In this document: one piece after another, positions 2,885-64,000 of the stretch
How positions within the stretch are numbered: the first letter of the stretch is position 1
How the letters are laid out: each line of letters opens with the position of its first letter
Source of the DNA: Candidatus Doudnabacteria bacterium
Lineage (GTDB): Bacteria > Patescibacteriota > Doudnabacteria > UBA920
DNA: 64,000 nucleotides
Direction of reading: 5' to 3'
Assembly: GCA_963768175.1 (NCBI GenBank)
Contig: CAVYGQ010000001.1
Span: 840,717-904,716, forward strand
Notes under the pieces: model-generated
What the model was told of the DNA's origin: nothing
What the model saw: only the letters and a program-made list of their open reading frames with translations
Databases searched by the model: none
Made by a program: the position numbers and the translations under genes

Positions 2885-3601
2885 TCAGAGGTTTGCTGAC
2901 GTGTGCACCGCTATTACGTCTTCGTCATTTTCCAGCTCCTGAAACAGCGCGTCAACTTTCAGTTTTTGCTCTTCGGTTAGGTCCGTGCCTTGGGAGCTTT
3001 CTTTAATAATCTCCGCTTGGGCGATTTTGGCGCCGGCCTTTTCCAGGACTTGTTTGATTTTGTTCAAATCCGTGGGCTTGGTGTAAACTTCCAAACCTTC
3101 TTCTGACTCGCGTACATCATCGGCCCCCGCATCTATAGCCGCCAATTCAATATCAGATATTTCTGCATCGCGTTCTACCAAAATTTGTCCCTTGGTGGAA
3201 AATTGCCACGCCACGCTCCCTTGTGCCCCTAAGTTGCCGCTGTGTTTGGAGAACACATGTTTGATGTCATTGGTTGTCCTGTTGGGATTATCGGTTGCCG
3301 CTTCCACCAAAAATGCCGTGCCAAATGGCCCGTAGCCTTCATAAACCACTTCTTTTACTGCGCCGGCCCCTTCGCCAAGCGCGTTTTTGATTGCCCTGTC
3401 TATATTATCATTCGGCATGCCTTGTGCTTTGGCGGAATCCACGACGCTCTTTAATTTAAAATTCGCTTCTGGGTTTCCACCCCCGCCTTCCTTAACGGCA
3501 ATGGAAATTTTTTTGGAAAATTTGGAAAACAGCAGTCCTTTTTTTTGGTCAAGGGCTCCCTTAGTTCTTTTGATTTGCGACCATTTACTGTGACCGGACA
3601 T
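2885..3601 (-). CDS. yebC: YebC/PmpR family DNA-binding regulatory protein
   Basis: MSGHSKWSQIKRTKGALDQKKG... conserved N-terminus, 238 aa. Confidence 0.85.
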   Translation of the reverse strand: MSGHSKWSQIKRTKGALDQKKGLLFSKFSKKISIAVKEGGGGNPEANFKLKSVVDSAKAQGMPNDNIDRAIKNALGEGAGAVKEVVYEGYGPFGTAFLVEAATDNPNRTTNDIKHVFSKHSGNLGAQGSVAWQFSTKGQILVERDAEISDIELAAIDAGADDVRESEEGLEVYTKPTDLNKIKQVLEKAGAKIAQAEIIKESSQGTDLTEEQKLKVDALFQELENDEDVIAVHTSANL

Positions 3602-3612
3602 AAATAAGTAAT

Positions 3613-3666
3613 GTAGCGCGCCGATTTATCGGCAACTTGAGACAGCCCATAAATGGGCATGCTACG
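3613..3666. repeat. Compound palindromic intergenic repeat (copy 1 of 2; second copy at 55585-55637)
   Basis: GTAGCGCGCCGATTTATCGGCA...AGCCCATAAATGGGCA(T/C)GCTAC. Two inner palindromes, GCCGATTTATCGGC and GCCCATAAATGGGC, sit inside a GTAGCG/CGCTAC outer stem. Both copies carry identical 22-nt and 16-nt blocks. Confidence 0.8.
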
Positions 3667-3672
3667 CTGAGA

Positions 3673-4458
3673 TTATTTAAATGACACTAATACCGTAAAT
3701 TCTCCTTTAATGGAAGGTTTTTCTTTTAAAACATCAGAAACCTGCATCGGCGTACCGCGGATAAACTCTTCGTGCATTTTGGTGATTTCGCGGGCAATGA
3801 CGATTTGCGATGACGGAAAGGCATTGGTAATATAGTTTAAGGTTTTTAAAATCCGTTCCGGGGATTCATAAAAAATTGCTGTGGCTTCGGCATCGGCCGC
3901 GCTCTGCAGCGCCGAAACGGTTTTTGCCGCGGTTTTTTGTAAAAAACCCAAAAACATAAATTTATCGGTCGGCAAACCGGAGGCTGAAAGCGCGGCAATG
4001 GCGGCATTGGCTCCCGGGATCGGGACAACGGCCACATTTTCTTTTATGCACTCGCGCACCAAGCGAAAACCAGGATCGGAAATCCCGGGTGTGCCCGCAT
4101 CGGTAATTAAACAGCCGTCTTGTTTGGCCAGCCGGCGCGCCAGCTCTTTTACAATTTGTTGTTCGTTAAATTCCGCGAACTGAATAATTGGTTTCGCTGA
4201 AATTGCGAGGAGTGCATCCCGCCCCGACTCGCCGTCTTCGGCGAGGCGGGCCGACGAAGCAATCCCGTCTTTGTTTGAGATTGCCGCGCCCTCAGATGCA
4301 TTCGGGCTCGCAATTTCTAGACGTTCAATGTATTGCAGCAGCCTCCTGCTATATCCTGGATTTTCCGCAATAACAAAACTGCACGATTTTAAAGTTTCAA
4401 TCGCGCGCAGGGTTATGTCCCCCAGATTTCCTATTGGAGTCGCAACGATATACAACAT
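3673..4458 (-). CDS. rsmI: 16S rRNA (cytidine1402-2'-O)-methyltransferase RsmI, with an in-frame insertion of about 40 aa
   Basis: MLYIVATPIGNLGDITLRAIETL and ITDAGTPGISDPG motifs. An extra block, LEIASPNASEGAAISNKDGIASSARLAEDGESGRDALLAISAKP, is encoded by a GC-rich palindrome at 4205-4311. Confidence 0.8.
   Translation of the reverse strand: MLYIVATPIGNLGDITLRAIETLKSCSFVIAENPGYSRRLLQYIERLEIASPNASEGAAISNKDGIASSARLAEDGESGRDALLAISAKPIIQFAEFNEQQIVKELARRLAKQDGCLITDAGTPGISDPGFRLVRECIKENVAVVPIPGANAAIAALSASGLPTDKFMFLGFLQKTAAKTVSALQSAADAEATAIFYESPERILKTLNYITNAFPSSQIVIAREITKMHEEFIRGTPMQVSDVLKEKPSIKGEFTVLVSFK
4205..4311. repeat. GC-rich palindromic element inserted in frame in rsmI
   Basis: Arms gcgaggagtgcatc and gatgcattcgggctcgc are imperfect inverted repeats. 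The element contains nested hairpins ccgcc...ggcgg and ctcgccgtcttcggcgag and has higher GC than the flanking sequence. Confidence 0.65.
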
Positions 4459-8681: not shown

Positions 8682-9434
8682 TTATTTTGTTTCCGCCTTA
8701 TCCCACATATACCAAAACCATTTACGATAGCTGTCGGCCAAATCCTTACTGTGCAAAATAAAGAATACAACATTATCAGAAAGCCTAAATAGTTCCAGGC
8801 CGGTGTAGGTAACTACATAGTCGCCAAAGACATGAAAAATGGAATTTGTGGAATATTCTTTTGGCAGAAAACGATATTTTAAAAGTCCCGGCCAGGTTTT
8901 GGCAAAATCTGGCGCCTGGGTTTTGATTTCATGATCAAATAATTGGTGAAATTTAATTTTTTTCCTGGCGGCTTCTTTAAAAAACGCCTGCCTGCTGGCT
9001 TCCAGTTTCGGTTCAAACCAGCCGCCTTTGGCCCCTACAACAAAATTTTCCTCACCAACGCGCAAAACATCCCGCCAAAGATTTTTTTGCCCTTCCAAGC
9101 CCCGATAAATATAGGCTTCTTCCGGGGCAATGCGACGGGTGAATTTCTTTTTTAAATCAGGAAGTATTTTTCCTAGGCTGGTTTGTTTTTCCGCCAGTAA
9201 TTCCGTCAGCTTGTCTGGGTCAACTGCATTGTAGAGATTTTCCGAAGATGAAAAAATCTCAAAGACTAAGCCTTTGTCTATAAGCCGGGCAATGGCATCA
9301 TAGGCATTGCGGCGGTGAATTTTGGCACTAACAGCTATCTTGCTAATACCCGCTTCCCCTGTTTCCACAAGGGATTCGTAAATTTTGGCTTCATTTGGCG
9401 AAAGCCCTAAGCTTAGGAATAAATCTTGGTTCAT
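8682..9434 (-). CDS. TrmB-family transcriptional regulator (paralog 1)
   Basis: N-terminal wHTH (LGLSPNEAKIYESLVETGEAGISKIAVSAKIHRRNAYDAIARLIDKGLV) with a TrmB-like C-terminal domain. Confidence 0.8.
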   Translation of the reverse strand: MNQDLFLSLGLSPNEAKIYESLVETGEAGISKIAVSAKIHRRNAYDAIARLIDKGLVFEIFSSSENLYNAVDPDKLTELLAEKQTSLGKILPDLKKKFTRRIAPEEAYIYRGLEGQKNLWRDVLRVGEENFVVGAKGGWFEPKLEASRQAFFKEAARKKIKFHQLFDHEIKTQAPDFAKTWPGLLKYRFLPKEYSTNSIFHVFGDYVVTYTGLELFRLSDNVVFFILHSKDLADSYRKWFWYMWDKAETK

Positions 9435-9569
9435 ATAATGTGGTGATGATTGCTACCATGTGGCGCTATTGGCCACTCAATATAGATAATATATGCTTAT
9501 CTGTCAACCGTCAACCCCGCCGCTCGCGAGCGGCGGGTCAAGAAACGGCTCTGATAGAAGGAGGAATAC

Positions 9570-9894
9570 AATGCTTGATCAAGAGTTGAAGAGTTCTGCG
9601 ATTGCCCAAAACCCTCTCTTGGAACCGATGCTCGGGCGGAGTTCGTATACCTGCACGATTTTCGTGATTGATCTCCTTGGGGGGAAATCGGATAACTTTA
9701 GGATTTCAGACGAAGTTCTGGAGCAAATTCGAAAGAGGGTGGAGGGGGCGGAGGATGCGACCTACTACATCATCCACTTCATCCCCAGAGACTTTGAAGT
9801 TAGTAGTCTTGAGGACTTGCCTGAGTCCGAGAAAAAGAAGGTTCGCGAAGCGCTTAACCAAGCACCCTTTCCTGTTTGTATCGTTTGGGTTTAG
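9570..9894 (+). CDS. Hypothetical protein of 108 aa in a GC-rich island
   Basis: An SD (gaaggagga) lies 6 nt upstream of the ATG. GC content is far above the flanking sequence. Confidence 0.5.
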
Positions 9895-9967
9895 GCTAAC
9901 TATCGTGTGAGGTCGCTAGTACGAGCGAAGCTTGGGCGAGCTAGTGGGAGATTAAGAAAGGGGTAAT

Positions 9968-10552
9968 ATGAAAGCGGTACTGTTTTTGGCCATTTGTCTC
10001 ACCATCCCCGCTTCGGCCCAGGACTGGCAGACGCGGGACAGCCTGCACGTGCAGGCGGACGTCAGCAAAAATTGGTTCGTCTCCGGCTGGTCGGTGACCA
10101 ACCTGCGGACCGAAACCCCCAACAACACCAACCTGTTCGCAGGCGCAGGCTACCGCGGCAAAAACTGGTGGCTGGAGGCCATAGTACAGCACCAGTGGAA
10201 CACTAAGGCTAACCAGTGGATGCTGGACTTCCGGTTCAACAAGCAGACCGAACGGTGGCGCTTGTATGCCGAGGTCTCGCCTTTTCTGATCAAGAAGGCC
10301 TTCTACGAGTACGTTATTGTAGAACGGCGGACTTGGAAAGGCTTCTCGTTCGGCGCGGAGACCGAGAACACGCACCAGATTGGGCCGGACATGATCGCAA
10401 TAGGCCCTAGGGTTAGTCGCAAGCTCGGCCGGTTTGCTGGCTTTGATGCATCGGCCGCTATTGCGGTTCGGCTTAGCCCTGTCGGTGGGCATACTGAACC
10501 GCGGTTGTCCCTGACGTTCAACCGCCGGCTTTATTTGAGAGACCGCAAGTAG
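9968..10552 (+). CDS. Secreted protein with a signal peptide, possibly beta-barrel-like; GC-rich
   Basis: N-terminus MKAVLFLAICLTIPASAQD, followed by alternating hydrophobic/polar beta-like segments rich in W, Y and R. An SD (aagggg) is present. GC is about 60% against about 42% for the host. Confidence 0.5.
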   Translation: MKAVLFLAICLTIPASAQDWQTRDSLHVQADVSKNWFVSGWSVTNLRTETPNNTNLFAGAGYRGKNWWLEAIVQHQWNTKANQWMLDFRFNKQTERWRLYAEVSPFLIKKAFYEYVIVERRTWKGFSFGAETENTHQIGPDMIAIGPRVSRKLGRFAGFDASAAIAVRLSPVGGHTEPRLSLTFNRRLYLRDRK

Positions 10553-36482: not shown

Positions 36483-36631
36483 AAAGTATCGGTAAAACCG
36501 ACGATATTTTAATTACAATATAACCTTATTTTAAAGGATATTTTTAATATTGTCAATAATATATATCAAGATTATTGATATATTTAACAAATTAGTGTAT
36601 AGTGTTTGGTCAACCTTAAGGAGGGTTGGGT

Positions 36632-37277
36632 TATGAGAATATTAGTCGTTGACGACGAGCCCATCAATTTGCTCGCCGCGCAGCAGACTTTGGTTGGGCA
36701 CGAGTTAGTGCTCGTTGACGGTTACGATAAGGCAACGGTACTTTTGGAGCCGGCCGCATACGAAGAAGAGATCACAAAACTCCAGGGAGGGGAAGGCCAC
36801 CGCATTAGCTACCGGCAAGTGCAAGAGATGTTACGCAAGTCTACCAAAGTGTTTGATGCCGTCTTAACTGACCTGCTCATGCCCCCAGGCAAGAGGGGGC
36901 AATCACCGCGGTCTCGCGAAACGTTCCAGAACCTCCCATTTCCTTCGGGGGTGATGCTCGCCCTGCACGCGATCCGGCAAGGCGCAAAGTATGTCGCTGT
37001 GTTCACAAGCGGGATCAACCATCACCACAATCCCGCGGTCTGGATGATGGAGCCGCTCAGGTGGGGCTGGAACGCTACGCCGCAGAAGTTCTTGGTCAAC
37101 GGAGCCATTTTGGGATTCTTTGATGAGTGCGATGGCGGTCGCGTCCCTGTAGATGGCACTGTGTGTCAGGAATGCAATGGCAAAGGTTGCCTAACATATT
37201 GTCATGAAACTGGCAAGCTTTTTGCCAAGAACTGGGGAAGGGTTCTTGAGGAGCTCATCAAGCACCACAACAGCTAG
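36632..37277 (+). CDS. Orphan REC (receiver)-domain protein with a Cys-rich C-terminus; GC-rich
   Basis: MRILVVDDEP..DAVLTDLLMP..VAVFTS gives REC beta1, beta3 and beta4 signatures, and CQECNGKGCLTYCH follows at the C-terminus. A strong SD (aaggaggg) is present. GC is about 58%. Confidence 0.65.
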
Positions 37278-39417: not shown

Positions 39418-40174
39418 TCAAGACATTTTAGCGCTTGGACTTGCGTCCCAAATTGTCTCAAACAACTTAATTTCTCCAGCCACGATATCCGGGCTTTCAA
39501 TAATTACCGTTACCAATTCTTTTTTGGAACTGAAGATTGCCACTTTATTTCCGTAAATTAGTTTTGAACTGTTATATAAATGGTTTTCCGGCAAATATTT
39601 TACTTCCCTTAGAAGTTCGGCGTGATTGGCTGTTAAAAAAGATTCCGGCATCTGGGATTTAAAATATAAAGCTTTAAAGTTTATACGTTTTTTCAATCTG
39701 GTTGGGATATAGTAGTTTAAATCCCAGATCCTCGCCGATGACTTTATGGATTTCGCTAATTGAGCCAATGTGCCTGACGGTGGAATTGAAAGTTTTGAGG
39801 GAATCCTCCGAGGCAATAAAGTATCCTTCTTTGCCTTCGTAGTAAGTAATCTGCGGTTTCAGATCTGGTTTTTGCGCCAGACTGTTTAATTGCGGCAAGA
39901 TACTTTTTAAGTCGTCTAATTCTTTTTCTGTTTTAGATGCCAAAATATGCGGCGGTGTGGCCACAAATTTTAACCCGCTCCGCATTTTAAAACTGCCCAT
40001 TAAACCCTTTTTCTCCAAAGCCTGGAAAATTACATAAGCCGAAGTTCGTTTTAGTTGCGCTTCCAGCGCCAATTCCGACATCCCCGCCTCACCAAGTTTA
40101 AGCGATGCCAAATACAAAGCCACTTCGCCGTCTTCCAGCCCTAATTCTTTAAGAGTTTGTTTAATGTCTTGCAT
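39418..40174 (-). pseudogene. TrmB-family regulator (paralog 3), frameshifted into two overlapping ORFs
   Basis: ORF 39674-40174 carries the N-terminal wHTH (LGLEDGEVALYLASLKLGEAGMSELA). ORF 39418-39816, in another frame, carries the TrmB C-terminal region (KVAIFSS..VTVIIESPDIVAGEIKLFETIW), which is homologous to paralog 2. Confidence 0.6.
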
Positions 40175-40432
40175 ATTAAATACAAATAAATTGATGCCTG
40201 AGCTTGTCGAAGGCTCAATTTATTTGTCCCTTCGACTTTGCTCAGGGGACAAATAAATTTAAATTTGACGTTTTTTACGTCAACAGTATATCAAATCTAA
40301 TAAAAATAAGCAAATAAAGGCAAAATATATAATAAATTATGCCACAATTATTGACGTTATGTCAATTTTGATGTATTGTTATCGGTCAAAACAAAAACAC
40401 CTGACGAGGTTAACAACGCAAAGGAGGTAGTT

Positions 40433-40876
40433 ATGAATATTTTGGTTGTAGAAGACGATCCGAAGCATATGAAGGAGGCTGTTGAGGTCATTCAAGCCGC
40501 CGGACACGAAGTGATACAGGCAACTGATATGTATAGAGCCAGGGAGTATCTCTACGATGACCGCCCCGACGGAGTAATTACTGACCTTTTTATTCCGGAT
40601 GGTGCGGGAGGAGTAAATGAAGATGCGGATCAGCCGCGAGGCCTAGGAATTGTCTTAATGGCGCAGCAGGAAGGCATTCCTTGCATCATCTGCACCGCAG
40701 GATATCACCACGGATCCAAGTACAACTGGATCTGCGGACTCGGGCGGAGGTTGCACTGGCCACCGATGGTAGATCAGCTTCAGGATCGGCACAACTACGA
40801 GGTGGAAAGCCAGTCGAAAGACTGGCAAGAAGCGCTCGACACCCTGGTCAAGATCATAGTGGCCAAGGGATATTAA
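40433..40876 (+). CDS. Orphan REC-domain protein, paralog of 36632-37277; GC-rich
   Basis: MNILVVEDDP..DGVITDLFIP..CIICTAGYHHG. A strong SD (aaaggaggt) is present. It is divergent from TrmB paralog 3. Confidence 0.65.
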   Translation: MNILVVEDDPKHMKEAVEVIQAAGHEVIQATDMYRAREYLYDDRPDGVITDLFIPDGAGGVNEDADQPRGLGIVLMAQQEGIPCIICTAGYHHGSKYNWICGLGRRLHWPPMVDQLQDRHNYEVESQSKDWQEALDTLVKIIVAKGY

Positions 40877-61303: not shown

Positions 61304-61900
61304 ATGGCAAAGAAAGAAAAAACATCGTTTTTTGGCAAGATAATGGGGGGAAACGTTACAGAGGACACGGTTGTGACGCAGCCTGTTTCACAAACGCAGG
61401 AAGAAGATCTGGCTGAAGAACTCGCGCCGGATGATGACAATATAGTGGAGGAACGGGAAATGGTCATAGAGGAAGACTTGGTAGAGCCAGCTGTGCCGGC
61501 AGAGAAGGCCGCGGGGCAACAGGAGGCAGGTCAAGCCAAAGAAGGCAACGAGGAATGGCTTAACGACTTTGAGGGCCAGCTGAACATAGATATGTATCAG
61601 ACCAAGGACAATGTTATTATTAAGTCCACCATTGCCGGAGTCCGCCCCGAAGACATAGATATTACCGTGGCTAACGATATGGTAACCATAAGGGGCGCGC
61701 GCAAAAAAGACGAGAATATCCCGCAGGACGATTATTTTTACCAGGAATGCTACTGGGGCAATTTTTCCCGCTCGGTCATTATTCCCGTGGACATTGAAAG
61801 CGAAAGCATTGAAGCCGACCTAAAAGATGGTATTCTGACAGTGATTATACCAAAGGCGGCTAAGGCGAAGACAAAGAAAGTAAAAGTAAAAGGTTTATAG
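61304..61900 (+). CDS. Hsp20/alpha-crystallin family small heat shock protein
   Basis: ACD with GILTVIIPK. The N-terminus is acidic. Confidence 0.75.
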   Translation: MAKKEKTSFFGKIMGGNVTEDTVVTQPVSQTQEEDLAEELAPDDDNIVEEREMVIEEDLVEPAVPAEKAAGQQEAGQAKEGNEEWLNDFEGQLNIDMYQTKDNVIIKSTIAGVRPEDIDITVANDMVTIRGARKKDENIPQDDYFYQECYWGNFSRSVIIPVDIESESIEADLKDGILTVIIPKAAKAKTKKVKVKGL

Positions 61901-61936
61901 TGCTTAGTGCTTAGTGCTTAGTGCTTAGTGCTTAGA
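61898..61936. repeat. Tandem heptamer (GTGCTTA)x5 immediately after the hsp20 stop
   Basis: tagtgcttagtgcttagtgcttagtgcttagtgcttag. It carries TAG stops in all three frames. Confidence 0.85.
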
Positions 61937-61947
61937 GAGTAGTGAAT

Positions 61948-61971
61948 CCGCCTTCGCTAAAGCTACGGCGG
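61948..61971. repeat. REP-like hairpin CCGCC-TTCGCTAAAGCTAC-GGCGG (loop motif in reverse orientation)
   Basis: The loop is the reverse complement of CGTAGCYTTRGCGAA. Confidence 0.65.
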
Positions 61972-61989
61972 ACAAGTAGGATAAAACAC

Positions 61990-62235
61990 ATGAAAATTGT
62001 CAGAAATATTTATCAATACACCGCGGTATTTGAACCTGACAAAAAACGGGGCGGATTTACCGTGACCATTCCTTTTTTGCCAGGGTGTATTTCCGAAGGC
62101 GATACTTTTGAACAAGCTACCTTAAACATTCAGGAAGCCGCTGAGCTTTATCTTGAAGTAATGAAAAAGAAGAGAACAAAAATCTTGCGGGAAGAAAAAG
62201 GCGTGGTTGTGGCGCCCATTCAAGTTAGAGCTTAA
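61990..62235 (+). CDS. hicB: HicB-family antitoxin
   Basis: YTAVFEPDKKRGGFTVTIPFLPGCISEGDTFEQATLNIQEAAELYLE. Confidence 0.75.
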   Translation: MKIVRNIYQYTAVFEPDKKRGGFTVTIPFLPGCISEGDTFEQATLNIQEAAELYLEVMKKKRTKILREEKGVVVAPIQVRA

Positions 62236-62236
62236 T

Positions 62237-62455
62237 ATGCCAAAATTACCCGTTCTTACACCCAGAGTGGTTTGCAAGGCTTTGGAAAGAGCGGGTTTTG
62301 TTTTGGTTCGGCAAAAAGGCAGCCATAAAATGTATTTAAAAGATAGTTTAGGAGTAACCGTCCCGTATCACAACAAGGATTTAAAACCAAAAACTCTAAA
62401 ACACATTATTCAGGCATCCGGAATGGACTTGGTTGAGTTTATGGATTTGCTGTAA
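62237..62455 (+). CDS. hicA: HicA-family toxin
   Basis: MPKLPVLTPRVVCKALERAGFVLVRQKGSHKMY. Confidence 0.75.
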   Translation: MPKLPVLTPRVVCKALERAGFVLVRQKGSHKMYLKDSLGVTVPYHNKDLKPKTLKHIIQASGMDLVEFMDLL

Positions 62456-62619
62456 AAGTTATTTAACAATTCCGCTCCCAAAAGGCGCGGGATTTTGAAT
62501 ACAAAAAGAAAAGGCAAGTCGCGACGGCCTGCCTTCAATACTGGAGAGATGTCGCTCTTCCGGGCGCTTTGCGTTGGTACCCCGCAAAGCGGGTTTGTGA
62601 TGTGACGCCCAATTTCCAT

Positions 62620-62922
62620 TCAGATGGACGGCAAGTCTTTCCTTTTTTGGAACTCTTGATAAGAGATTTTTTCGCCGTTGGGCAAAAGGACGTGGGTTAT
62701 TGGTTGATTCCAAACAAGCTTCCGCCGATGGTCAAAAACAAGATACTCACAACTCAATTTACCAGAGCCTTTGCAAAAGCCGCACGCTTTTGCTACCGTG
62801 TCGCCTGGGTCAACTGGCCCCCAAAGTCCTGTCATACAGCAGTGGTGGCATCCGGTTATTATGAGTTTAGTTTTTATTTTCATTCTACTTATCCCCGAGT
62901 TTTTCAAGAAGGTCAAGGACAC
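62620..62922 (-). CDS. Hypothetical Cys-rich protein (100 aa), GC about 50%
   Basis: CHHCC and CGFCKGSGKLSC motifs. Only an ORF-level call. Confidence 0.35.
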   Translation of the reverse strand: MSLTFLKNSGISRMKIKTKLIITGCHHCCMTGLWGPVDPGDTVAKACGFCKGSGKLSCEYLVFDHRRKLVWNQPITHVLLPNGEKISYQEFQKRKDLPSI

Positions 62923-63130
62923 CCCCGTAAAGCAGGTACCAAACGGAGAAAACCTTCAGCCCAATTGCTCCAAGCATAGCCGCACTGACTAACAACACTT
63001 TGCCGATAGTTCCTCCGAACACTAAGGCAAGAACAACGAGAAACAGAGCGGCGATGAAAAGGGATAGCGAGATTTTTCCGCAAACCCGTTTTTCCCTCTC
63101 AAAACTCAGTTCTTTGTCCGTATCCATCAT
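62885..63130 (-). CDS. Hypothetical small membrane protein (2 TM)
   Basis: The hydrophobic profile only. It is divergent from TrmB paralog 4. Confidence 0.4.
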   Translation of the reverse strand: MMDTDKELSFEREKRVCGKISLSLFIAALFLVVLALVFGGTIGKVLLVSAAMLGAIGLKVFSVWYLLYGGVLDLLEKLGDK

Positions 63131-63285
63131 AGTTTCCTCCTTGGGGATTGAGCTTTATAATCGTCAAAAAATGAAAAATAGTCAATAAAAATCGACTATT
63201 TATTTAGTGGATATAAATTTTATTAGTAAACATTGATTAAATATGTTATATTTTTGTTGTCAGAAAGCAATGACAAATATTGTTT

Positions 63286-64000
63286 ATGGAAGAAGAATTG
63301 CAAAAATTAGGCTTAAGTGAGCACGAAGCCAAAATATATTTGGCGGCTTTGAGTTTGGGTCCTTCATCGGCGGCCCAAATATCGACGCAGACTAGTATAA
63401 AGCGGCCCACTGTTTATTTGGCTTTGGACAGTTTAATTAAGCAAGGATTAGTTTTAGAAAATTTTGCCGGGAAAAAGAGGTTGTTTGAGGCTGAGAAGCC
63501 TCAAAAGTTAGAAAAGCTGACCAAACGAATGAGGCGGCAAGTTATTGATGCGGAAATTTTGTTAGAAAGCGTATTGCCGGGACTAATTAAACTTCCTAAA
63601 CAATACTCACAAGAGCCGAAAGTAAGTTTTTATTCAGGAGAAGAAGGTTTAAAAAATATTGCGCTTGAAATTTCAGCTTGCTCATCTTCCTGGTATGCTT
63701 TTGGCTCCGGCGCAAAAATATTGGAAAAACTTGCAAAATTCAAAAGGATGGACATACTTTACGATTCTTGGGATATACGCAGTAGCCCGAGCAGGCCGAA
63801 AATTTATATAATTACAGACGCAGGAGTTTTTTCTTTGGGAAAAGAATGGGAAAAAAACAAAACTCCCTGGCGGGAAGTAAAGATTTTACCCGGGATCATT
63901 GGTGTCGGCTCCGGACTTATTATTTATGAAGATAAAGTGGCAGTATTGAGTCTTGAAAATAAACCTTTTGTTGCGGTAATTAAGAGCAAAGAGGTTGTGG
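63286..64000 (+). CDS. TrmB-family transcriptional regulator (paralog 4), running off the window end
   Basis: MEEELQKLGLSEHEAKIYLAALSLGPSSAAQISTQTSIKRPTVYLALDSLIKQGLV. It is not in the ORF track because no stop falls within the window. Confidence 0.75.
   Translation, partial: MEEELQKLGLSEHEAKIYLAALSLGPSSAAQISTQTSIKRPTVYLALDSLIKQGLVLENFAGKKRLFEAEKPQKLEKLTKRMRRQVIDAEILLESVLPGLIKLPKQYSQEPKVSFYSGEEGLKNIALEISACSSSWYAFGSGAKILEKLAKFKRMDILYDSWDIRSSPSRPKIYIITDAGVFSLGKEWEKNKTPWREVKILPGIIGVGSGLIIYEDKVAVLSLENKPFVAVIKSKEVV

Follow-up and report, generated by a model that had tools for sequence, protein, structure and literature searches.

What does a transcriptional regulator of the TrmB family control in a bacterium of the Candidate Phyla Radiation (CPR), when the genes that stand back to back with it change from genome to genome? 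This question is raised by the right end of a 64,000-nucleotide (nt) stretch of a Candidatus Doudnabacteria genome (assembly GCA_963768175.1, contig CAVYGQ010000001.1, positions 840,717 to 904,716), referred to below as the window. Four genes for TrmB proteins are located in the window, and the last of them, trmB4, diverges from two small open reading frames (ORFs), one with two putative transmembrane (TM) segments and one rich in Cys, next to a hicBA toxin-antitoxin (TA) pair. CPR/Patescibacteria are not growable alone. To our knowledge, almost nothing has been reported on transcriptional regulation in these organisms, and a literature search yielded no paper linking TrmB with CPR/Patescibacteria or with any CPR phylum by name. 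An earlier note, made from the letters of the window, had described a recurrent pattern of TrmB regulators facing short cargo regions of different composition in an accessory or mobile neighbourhood. Comparison of 20 orthologous trmB4 loci (50–100% protein identity; the loci of relatives are distinguished below by L numbers) leads to another answer, which we consider rather probable: trmB4 encodes a conserved, monocistronic TrmBL2-like regulator with a putative fixed operator pair, which faces a variable slot in Doudnabacteria-like CPR bacteria.

Family and Architecture of TrmB4

All four ORFs claimed as TrmB proteins do match PF01978 (E-values in Table 1), the winged helix-turn-helix (wHTH) domain of TrmB4 with 55.0 bits (cut-off 25.6; residues 5–70) and those of the other three paralogs with 36–52 bits. 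Full-length TrmB4 counts 255 amino acids (aa) from MEEEL; just 17 codons of the gene lie beyond the window end, for which the identical database protein P0008 supplies EVVKVMFQLIWKSLLVQ. With Pfam the N-terminal domain was the only one recognized in TrmB4: PF11495 was found neither at E ≤ 0.01 nor among the precomputed domains of 86 homologues. The NCBIfam models of TrmB/TrmBL1 cover only residues ~3–81 of TrmB4, with 16–26 bits vs. cut-offs of 600–650. A profile built from 48 TrmB4 homologues (A4) aligned over its full length with TrmBL2 (5box; query residues 8–250 to chain residues 13–262, E 4.8e-8) and over residues 3–94 only with TrmB (3QPH). The AlphaFold (AF2) model calculated on A4, with a mean predicted local distance difference test score (pLDDT) of 87.7, consists of a wHTH (~1–66), a 35-residue helix (68–102) and a C-terminal alpha/beta domain (108–247) similar to phospholipase D (PLD); a single-sequence AlphaFold model was discarded (pLDDT 37). 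When the model was compared with the PDB using Foldseek, eight TrmBL2 chains came on top (E ~1e-11; best 1.2e-11 over 263 columns) and TrmB came next, and the C-terminal domain was found to resemble the PLD-fold proteins NucT, BJ-TSA-9 and Zucchini. Since the alignment of homologues contains no invariant His in this domain, a catalytic HKD site in TrmB4 is unlikely.

With TrmBL2 of Thermococcales (PF0496/TK0471; 5BOX, 5BQT, 5BPD) TrmB4 shares its length (~255–264 aa), the succession of wHTH, long dimerizing (coiled-coil) helix and C-terminal domain, the absence of the sugar-binding subdomain and the Tyr of the recognition helix. This Tyr (Y44, in KRPTVY) is invariant in the alignments A1, A4, and A5 and aligns with ...NRVYD of TrmB; it plays an important part in the recognition of DNA by archaeal TrmBs (Y50 in P. 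furiosus TrmB; PMC4158304, Table 1). TrmB/TrmBL1 proteins (Tgr; 3QPH; NF040851, NF047390) have the same PF01978 DNA-binding domain, which makes a dimeric recognition of palindromes plausible also for TrmB4. However, TrmB4 is ~85 residues shorter (TrmB ~340 aa) and does not match the sugar-binding part at the C-terminus, its presumed half-site has another sequence, and no sugar transport or glycolytic genes are found nearby. TrmBL1 recognizes the Thermococcales glycolytic motif (TGM), TATCAC-N5-GTGATA. Judged by profile comparison and predicted fold, TrmB4 is a protein of TrmBL2 type and not a sugar sensor, and the annotation of such "~250-aa TrmB" proteins as sugar regulators in these genomes is misleading, as they have the TrmBL2 architecture.

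The likeness to TrmBL2 has its limits, since TrmB4 is 17–20% identical to it and comes from a bacterial (CPR) host. TrmBL2, which is without ~70 residues of the sugar-binding part, was described as a chromatin protein and global repressor; it is abundant, forms filaments and binds coding as well as intergenic DNA with little specificity (PMC4158304), coating it (PMC4158304, PMC4877046). TrmB4 differs in the strongly conserved and specific pair of palindromes at the promoter of its gene, an arrangement that speaks for a local, sequence-specific regulator.

Conservation of trmB4 and Its Neighbourhood

A scan of one genome per species gave six loci with proteins 61–83% identical, of which four are labeled Candidatus Doudnabacteria, one "uncultured bacterium" and one "Patescibacteria group bacterium"; 13 further orthologous loci were obtained by scanning metagenomes and by two exact look-ups. 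Among the 86 relatives in the protein database, every source that names an organism is a CPR one (Paceibacterota, Patescibacteria group, Jacksonbacteria, Kaiserbacteria).

The gene order in L002–L005 is: glycosyltransferase of monogalactosyldiacylglycerol (MGDG) type, hsp20, a variable stretch of 1–1.6 kb, trmB4, ftsK, a rodZ-like gene and recA. In L007, whose contig stops at trmB4, the order of glycosyltransferase, hsp20, slot and trmB4 is the same, and even L028, with a 50%-identity orthologue, keeps the same order through ftsK and the rodZ-like gene, whilst in L020 and L021 ftsK stands downstream of trmB4 as far as the contig reaches. Both flanks of trmB4 are different in L014 and L016–L019. 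The gene downstream of trmB4 is convergent and unrelated in four of these five loci (L014, L016–L018), and in L019 trmB4 is followed by two small ORFs of the same strand and then by a long, convergent one. Such convergent or unrelated downstream genes indicate that trmB4 is monocistronic, and the conserved unit is trmB4 together with ~150 bp upstream of it.

Does trmB4 belong to a sugar-utilization operon beyond the window end, as would befit a classical TrmB? No gene of sugar transport or of glycolysis/gluconeogenesis was found beside trmB4 in any of the 20 loci, where the neighbours are hsp20, ftsK, rodZ-like, recA, yidC-like, MFS transporter and hypothetical genes; a sugar-utilization operon, which the earlier note had named as a refutation, was thus seen in no relative.

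A Conserved Pair of Palindromes Upstream of trmB4

When seven upstream regions were aligned with MAFFT, the sole invariant blocks were GTTGTCAG...ATGACA and one other element similar to it. With 18 loci anchored on the former, the consensus was TGTTGTCAGAA-N-ATGACA, directly after a TATAAT-like hexamer, with nearly no conservation elsewhere. This proximal palindrome of 18 bp is kept in 20 of 20 loci, although the rest of the intergenic region diverged. It begins 5 nt past the TATATT hexamer, with its first base 28 nt upstream of the trmB4 start, and ends 10 nt before the ATG. The exact motif GTCA-N8-TGAC has its sole occurrence in the 64-kb window at this site (0.23 expected by chance), and in ~163 kb of DNA (window and loci) the exact 18-mer pattern was found at trmB4 only.

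A weaker, distal copy lies 77–79 bp upstream of the proximal one in 20 loci (78 bp in the window, where its arms reach 11 nt). Even the two orthologues of 50% identity retain this layout, as L028 carries AGTCA-N8-TGACT and TGTCA-N8-TGACA 78 bp apart, and L029 AGTCA-N8-TGACA and TGTCA-N8-TGACA 79 bp apart. The distal sites agree on average with 7.5 of the 10 specified positions vs. 4.0 in shuffled sequences, and their summed score of 135 (vs. 71.7 ± 4.5) was reached in none of 5000 shuffles, a count that overstates independence because the sequences are related; the spacers around the sites have nonetheless diverged freely. A variant of the palindrome, TGTCC...CGACA, occurs in L006 and L019 only, and the same two loci alone encode the recognition helix KRTTVYSAL instead of KRPTVYLAL, a covariation of helix and operator that is suggestive. 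From this footprint we infer that the two palindromes are the operators of TrmB4.

The following mechanism may be proposed. A TrmB4 dimer would bind TGTCA-N8-TGACA just downstream of its own −10 box and block its own promoter or the early transcript region, which would result in autorepression. A dimer on the distal site would block the divergent promoter, for which the candidate on the minus strand (63185–63157), identified by consensus match only, uses the left half of the distal palindrome as its −35 element. With the distal copy placed on the divergent −35, the gene in the facing position is probably co-repressed, and cooperative or tetrameric binding of TrmB4 might possibly underlie this co-repression. 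The footprint hence predicts not only the TrmB4 operator but also a fixed two-site architecture that would cover the promoter of any gene in the slot.

The Variable Slot and the hicBA Pair

In 16 readable loci, the genes that stand first on the divergent side of trmB4 represent at least 12 unrelated families. In the window this gene is the 2-TM ORFan; elsewhere the position is taken by a family of 219–253 aa with a possible C-terminal wHTH (weak matches only; L002, L004, L007), a major facilitator superfamily (MFS) transporter (L005, L016), a polyprenyl synthase (L022), a glycosyltransferase (L029), or hypothetical proteins without a Pfam match (L003, L006, L014, L017–L020, L023, L028). The family of 219–253 aa, which lies at 3132–3791 (minus strand) in L002, at 9078–9839 in L004 and at 9184–9849 in L007, may be the ancestral occupant of the slot. 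On the left, the slot of the window is bordered by a tandem repeat that begins at the stop codon of hsp20.

TA modules recur around trmB4. Besides hicBA in the window, L028 contains a PIN protein (Pfam PF01850); in L003 an 80 + 82-aa pair upstream and a 70 + 142-aa pair downstream of trmB4 can be read as TA-like from size and arrangement only, and the translations of L006 give a possible VapBC-like pair. The hicBA pair reported in the earlier note is intact: HicA and HicB score 62.5 and 44.8 bits, respectively, both above the cut-off of 27, and their genes are 1 nt apart. As in HicAB type II TA systems, PF07927 and PF15919 genes are adjacent and nearly abutting, and HicA has the GSH motif; unlike in those systems, the antitoxin gene comes first here and HicB is short. 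It matches positions 1–55 of 123 of the PF15919 profile, i.e., the N-terminal HicB fold only, and in the 81-aa protein no C-terminal DNA-binding domain, either ribbon-helix-helix or helix-turn-helix, was recognizable with Pfam. Many, but not all, HicB proteins have such a domain for autoregulation. In L013 (1153–1531) hicBA stands immediately downstream of trmB4 instead of upstream. The two pairs are closely related (HicA 89% and HicB 84% identical at the protein level, DNA ~87%, with similarity starting ~25 nt before hicB), and their location on opposite sides indicates that the cassette moved across trmB4.

Variable hotspots between conserved core genes are known for defence and accessory islands in other bacteria and in phages. 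The slot resembles them in its conserved flanks (hsp20 on one side, trmB4-ftsK on the other), in the unrelated inserts of each genome and in the frequency of TA modules. It differs from them in that the searches revealed neither an integrase nor attC, flanking repeats or known defence proteins, and in that one of its edges is a conserved promoter-operator region. Specifically, there is no integrase, recombinase or transposase ORF among the slot neighbours, and no significant direct or inverted repeats flank 61900–63180; PADLOC gave no defence matches with the slot proteins, and PHROGs gave phage matches at the level of zinc knuckles only. The accessory neighbourhood suspected in the earlier note is therefore real for the stretch facing trmB4, with its different genes per genome and recurrent TA modules, but it does not extend to trmB4 itself as cargo.

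The spacer downstream of hicA has a GC content of 0.50 and several hairpins, which probably include the terminators of hicA (plus strand) and of the Cys-rich operon (minus strand). That it might be a structured RNA or a pseudogene was rejected, with a fold z-score of −1.5 vs. shuffles and no remnant of the C-terminal domain of the L002 protein described below; the Rfam scan of 58–64 kb gave a chance-level match only.

The Two Small Divergent Genes

The 2-TM ORF of 81 aa was claimed correctly. Hydropathy reveals a continuous hydrophobic stretch (~residues 16–72), which fits two TM helices, an AGGAGG Shine-Dalgarno sequence precedes the ATG, and gene calling recovered the ORF on two assemblies. 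It forms a singleton cluster among ~15 billion proteins, with no Pfam, PHROG or PADLOC match and a single sub-threshold match in NCBIfam (ExtQ; E 0.017, 15 bits vs. 150).

The Cys-rich ORF is present and divergent from trmB4 as had been described, but not in the described length of 100 aa: the alignment with its homologues begins no earlier than the ATG at 62883, which is therefore the likely start and gives a protein of 87 aa. As this start lies 1 nt past the 2-TM stop codon, the two genes seem to form a tightly coupled operon. A word-index homology search with the Cys-rich ORF gave no matches; exhaustive HMMER against 1.8 billion representatives returned seven, i.e., five convincing relatives and two low-complexity repeats, and a profile search four more. 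The family, counted at 8 or fewer proteins, is very rare. Invariant in it are C12, C15, T18, G19, C34, C37, G39, G41, F50, V65, and Y75, arranged as two CxxCxGxG-like knuckles, after which comes a beta region containing (T/K/S)HV. In the window the knuckles read CHHCCMTG (CxxCxxTG, with the Gly at position 6 missing) and CGFCKGSG. The window protein itself has no Pfam match, and five of seven family members match PF00684 (DnaJ CR; best E 2.1e-5) and PF15777 (anti-TRAP). Against solved structures the family profile was weak (DnaJ 1exk 0.034, Q antiterminator 0.1, anti-TRAP 0.19). With DnaJ CR, anti-TRAP and the zinc motif of phage Q the family has in common two motifs resembling CxxCxGxG, predicted to bind one zinc; the likeness is limited to these knuckles, and the C-terminal beta region (F50, (T/K/S)HV, Y75) is its own. 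By analogy, a zinc-dependent protein-binding module would be our best guess.

A comparison is offered by L002 (2426–3106, minus strand), where a Cys-rich homologue of 226 aa, extended C-terminally by an additional domain that contains Cys and His, follows the 219-aa protein. Over 74 codons (58% identity) the nonsynonymous (dN) and synonymous (dS) divergences are 0.32 and 1.24, and the ratio dN/dS of ~0.26 indicates purifying selection on the Cys-rich gene. Stand-alone members of 85–95 aa exist as well (P0004, P0005, P0006, P0095), so the 87-aa version is not necessarily a truncated one. One relative (P0096; 150 aa, L008 6001–6453) is encoded in a phage/prophage-like locus, with small hypothetical, ParB-methyltransferase and amidoligase genes upstream and terminase, portal, ClpP protease and capsid genes downstream, which links the family to phages. 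Whether the small ORFs are conserved thus has two answers, as the Cys-rich one is and the 2-TM one is not.

The atypical composition ascribed to both small ORFs was not confirmed. Their GC contents (0.451 and 0.472) lie within the norm of the window (0.449 ± 0.045 for 49 long ORFs).

Alternative Explanations

How firmly can the palindromes be attributed to TrmB4, and the facing genes to its control? Several points weigh against this attribution. The covariation in L006 and L019 is probably a single evolutionary event; moreover, the half-sites there are asymmetric (TGTCC, TGTCG) and the distal site of L019 differs again. At the distal site, the left half (TTGAC) would also make a plausible −35 element, thus part of its conservation could be promoter conservation. 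The spacing of 78 bp amounts to ~7.4 helical turns, which is out of phase for simple looping, and the palindromes could be bound by a factor other than TrmB4. A widely conserved regulator should have further targets, and none were found in the limited DNA searched (~163 kb). Finally, the 2-TM ORF is without a homologue, and its coding status is deduced from the ribosome-binding site, hydrophobic profile and gene calls only. Some of these points can be assembled into an explanation in which the palindromes are not operators of TrmB4 at all, being back-to-back promoter elements, a hairpin of the 5′ untranslated region or sites of another factor, with TrmB4 acting elsewhere, e.g., in a nucleoid-like manner. 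The −35-like TTGAC and the lack of further target sites would agree with it, and so would the behaviour of the closest solved relative, as TrmBL2 binds and coats DNA largely non-specifically (PMC4158304, PMC4877046). We regard this explanation as unlikely. The proximal site is located downstream of the −10 box, where a promoter hexamer is not expected, and both sites share their half-site and fixed spacing over 20 loci, with spacers otherwise diverged. The RNA hairpin was rejected on the grounds that in five loci the right half reads ATAACA, which breaks a C–G pair of the stem without compensation. Besides, it is common for wHTH regulators to autoregulate through a palindrome at their own promoter.

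Are the two small ORFs functional? They might be chance ORFs or products of decay after hicBA insertion, in which case the Cys-rich one would be a relic of a 226-aa protein of the L002 type. The Cys-rich ORF was indeed left uncalled on an identical Logan contig and is absent from the gene index, and its alignment with the L002 homologue continues to the stop codon of the window's ORF; the 2-TM ORF, as mentioned, is a singleton. That the ORFs are dead is nevertheless quite unlikely in our estimate, considering that the stand-alone members do exist, that 11 of 11 invariant positions and a low dN/dS are kept in the Cys-rich gene, that the stop codon of one is 1 nt from the start codon of the other, as in coupled operons, that a strong Shine-Dalgarno sequence precedes the 2-TM ORF, and that the C-terminal domain has left no detectable remnant. 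The remaining explanation is the one closest to the earlier note, i.e., that trmB4 is one of several sugar-type TrmBs that travel with, or are dedicated to, cargo of foreign composition in a mobile neighbourhood. It would account for the variable and TA-rich slot, for the divergent arrangement of all four paralogs and for the GC-rich genes that face TrmB1–3. However, it is largely refuted and keeps no more than a slight chance: trmB4 is a single-copy orthologue in 20 loci, and both it and its flanks remain conserved at identities as low as 50%, which argues that it is not cargo, the GC of the small ORFs is typical, integrase, transposase and flanking repeats were not found, the sugar-binding subdomain is absent and there are no sugar genes nearby.

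Implications of the Locus

The reading that we prefer, a conserved regulator facing a variable slot, does not overturn current understanding. The locus offers a concrete pair of regulator and putative operator, i.e., TrmB4 and TGTCA-N8-TGACA, in two copies 78 bp apart and conserved down to 50% protein identity. Together with the relocating hicBA, the slot is a small and well-bounded example of the turnover of accessory genes in a reduced genome. One may go further and ask if the control region of trmB4, with its two putative operators 78 bp apart and its back-to-back promoters, is a conserved, regulator-guarded expression site of CPR bacteria, at which newly landed genes would be repressed by TrmB4 at once. 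We consider this very unlikely to hold as a whole. If it did, a local function reminiscent of xenogeneic silencing would be exerted by an archaeal-type, TrmBL2-like protein, and TrmB-family paralogs would be a main family of transcription factors in these reduced genomes.

Features of the Window

Table 1. Positions of trmB4, its control region, the slot genes and the other TrmB paralogs in the 64,000-nt window.
Feature	Position	Strand	Evidence or remark
hsp20, conserved left flank of slot	61304-61900	+	PF00011, E 2.8e-19
7-nt tandem repeat (TAGTGCT) x5.4	61898-61935		Tandem Repeats Finder score 76, 100% matches
hicB, short-form antitoxin (81 aa)	61990-62235	+	PF15919, E 1.7e-11
hicA, toxin (72 aa with the ATG start; 82 aa in the gene call, which starts at TTG 62207)	62237-62455	+	PF07927, E 4.1e-17; GSH motif
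GC-rich convergent spacer, 164 bp	62456-62619		Composition, hairpins
Cys-rich ORF	62620-62922 as listed; gene 62620-62883 (87 aa)	-	Homologue alignment
Hydrophobic ~2-TM ORF, 81 aa	62885-63130	-	First gene of divergent operon
AT-rich spacer, 155 bp, GC 0.24	63131-63285		
Candidate divergent promoter TTGACT-17-GATTAT, sigma-70-like	63157-63185	-	Consensus scan, 9/12 matches
Distal palindrome AGTCAATAAAAATCGACT	63180-63197		
Candidate trmB4 -10 hexamer TATATT, TG two bases upstream	63247-63252	+	Read from sequence; column block conserved in anchored alignment
Proximal palindrome TGTCAGAAAGCAATGACA, TGTCA-N8-TGACA	63258-63275		
trmB4, first 238 of 255 codons	63286 to window end (64000)	+	PF01978, E 7.5e-15
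TrmB paralog 1, 250 aa	8682-9434	-	PF01978, E 5.9e-14
TrmB paralog 2, 243 aa	35751-36482	-	PF01978, E 3.1e-13
TrmB paralog 3, frameshifted	39418-40174 (N-terminal ORF 39674-40174)	-	PF01978, E 5.6e-9

The Other TrmB Paralogs

The four TrmB proteins are mutually 23–28% identical (TrmB1 vs. TrmB4, 24%). Their recognition helices all differ (KRPTVYLAL, HRRNAYDAI, KRATVYELV, and KRTSAYVIF), and the upstream repeats of TrmB1–3, read from the window alone, differ as well. A perfect 22-bp GC palindrome (9516–9537) lies upstream of TrmB1 and the palindrome ATATATCAA-N5-TTGATATAT upstream of TrmB2. The region upstream of TrmB3 (40182–40283) contains three copies of ACAAATAAATT, two of them inverted, and the palindromes TTGACGT-N5-ACGTCAA and TTGACGTTATGTCAA. 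The comparison of the four DNA-binding helices, which the earlier note had called for, hence fits different operators. As regards the pattern said to repeat at all four paralogs, the divergent layout is real in each case, but facing genes rich in GC are limited to TrmB1–3, where the ORFs have a GC content of 0.50–0.58. The trmB genes themselves are GC-poor (0.385–0.42).

TrmB3 is split between two frames, one coding for the N-terminal 166 aa and the other (ORF 39418–39816) for the C-terminal part, which together correspond to a gene of ~252 aa. The C-terminal part (...REVKYLPENH...KLIYGNKVAIFSS...IIESPDIVAGEIKLFETIWDAS) aligns to TrmB4 residues 196–238, and the frameshift near 39735 marks either a pseudogene or an assembly indel. 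The gene diverges from a GC-rich ORF (40376–40876, plus strand) that encodes a response-regulator receiver domain (PF00072, E 4e-7), and TrmB2 from another GC-rich ORF (36606–37277, plus strand), whose N-terminus MRILVVDDEP looks receiver-like and gives no Pfam match; the pairing of TrmB with receiver proteins may be a recurring one. TrmB1 faces two GC-rich ORFs within 9435–10552 (GC 0.50 and 0.58) without Pfam matches, of which the second (9968–10552) has an N-terminus that resembles a signal peptide.

Further TrmB paralogs are encoded a few kb from trmB4 in other loci (L004 16622–17338, L005 16891–17616, L015 2301–2531, L020 781–1473, and L029 3980–4759), and it seems that the lineage as a whole, not the window in particular, is characterized by dense TrmB paralogy.

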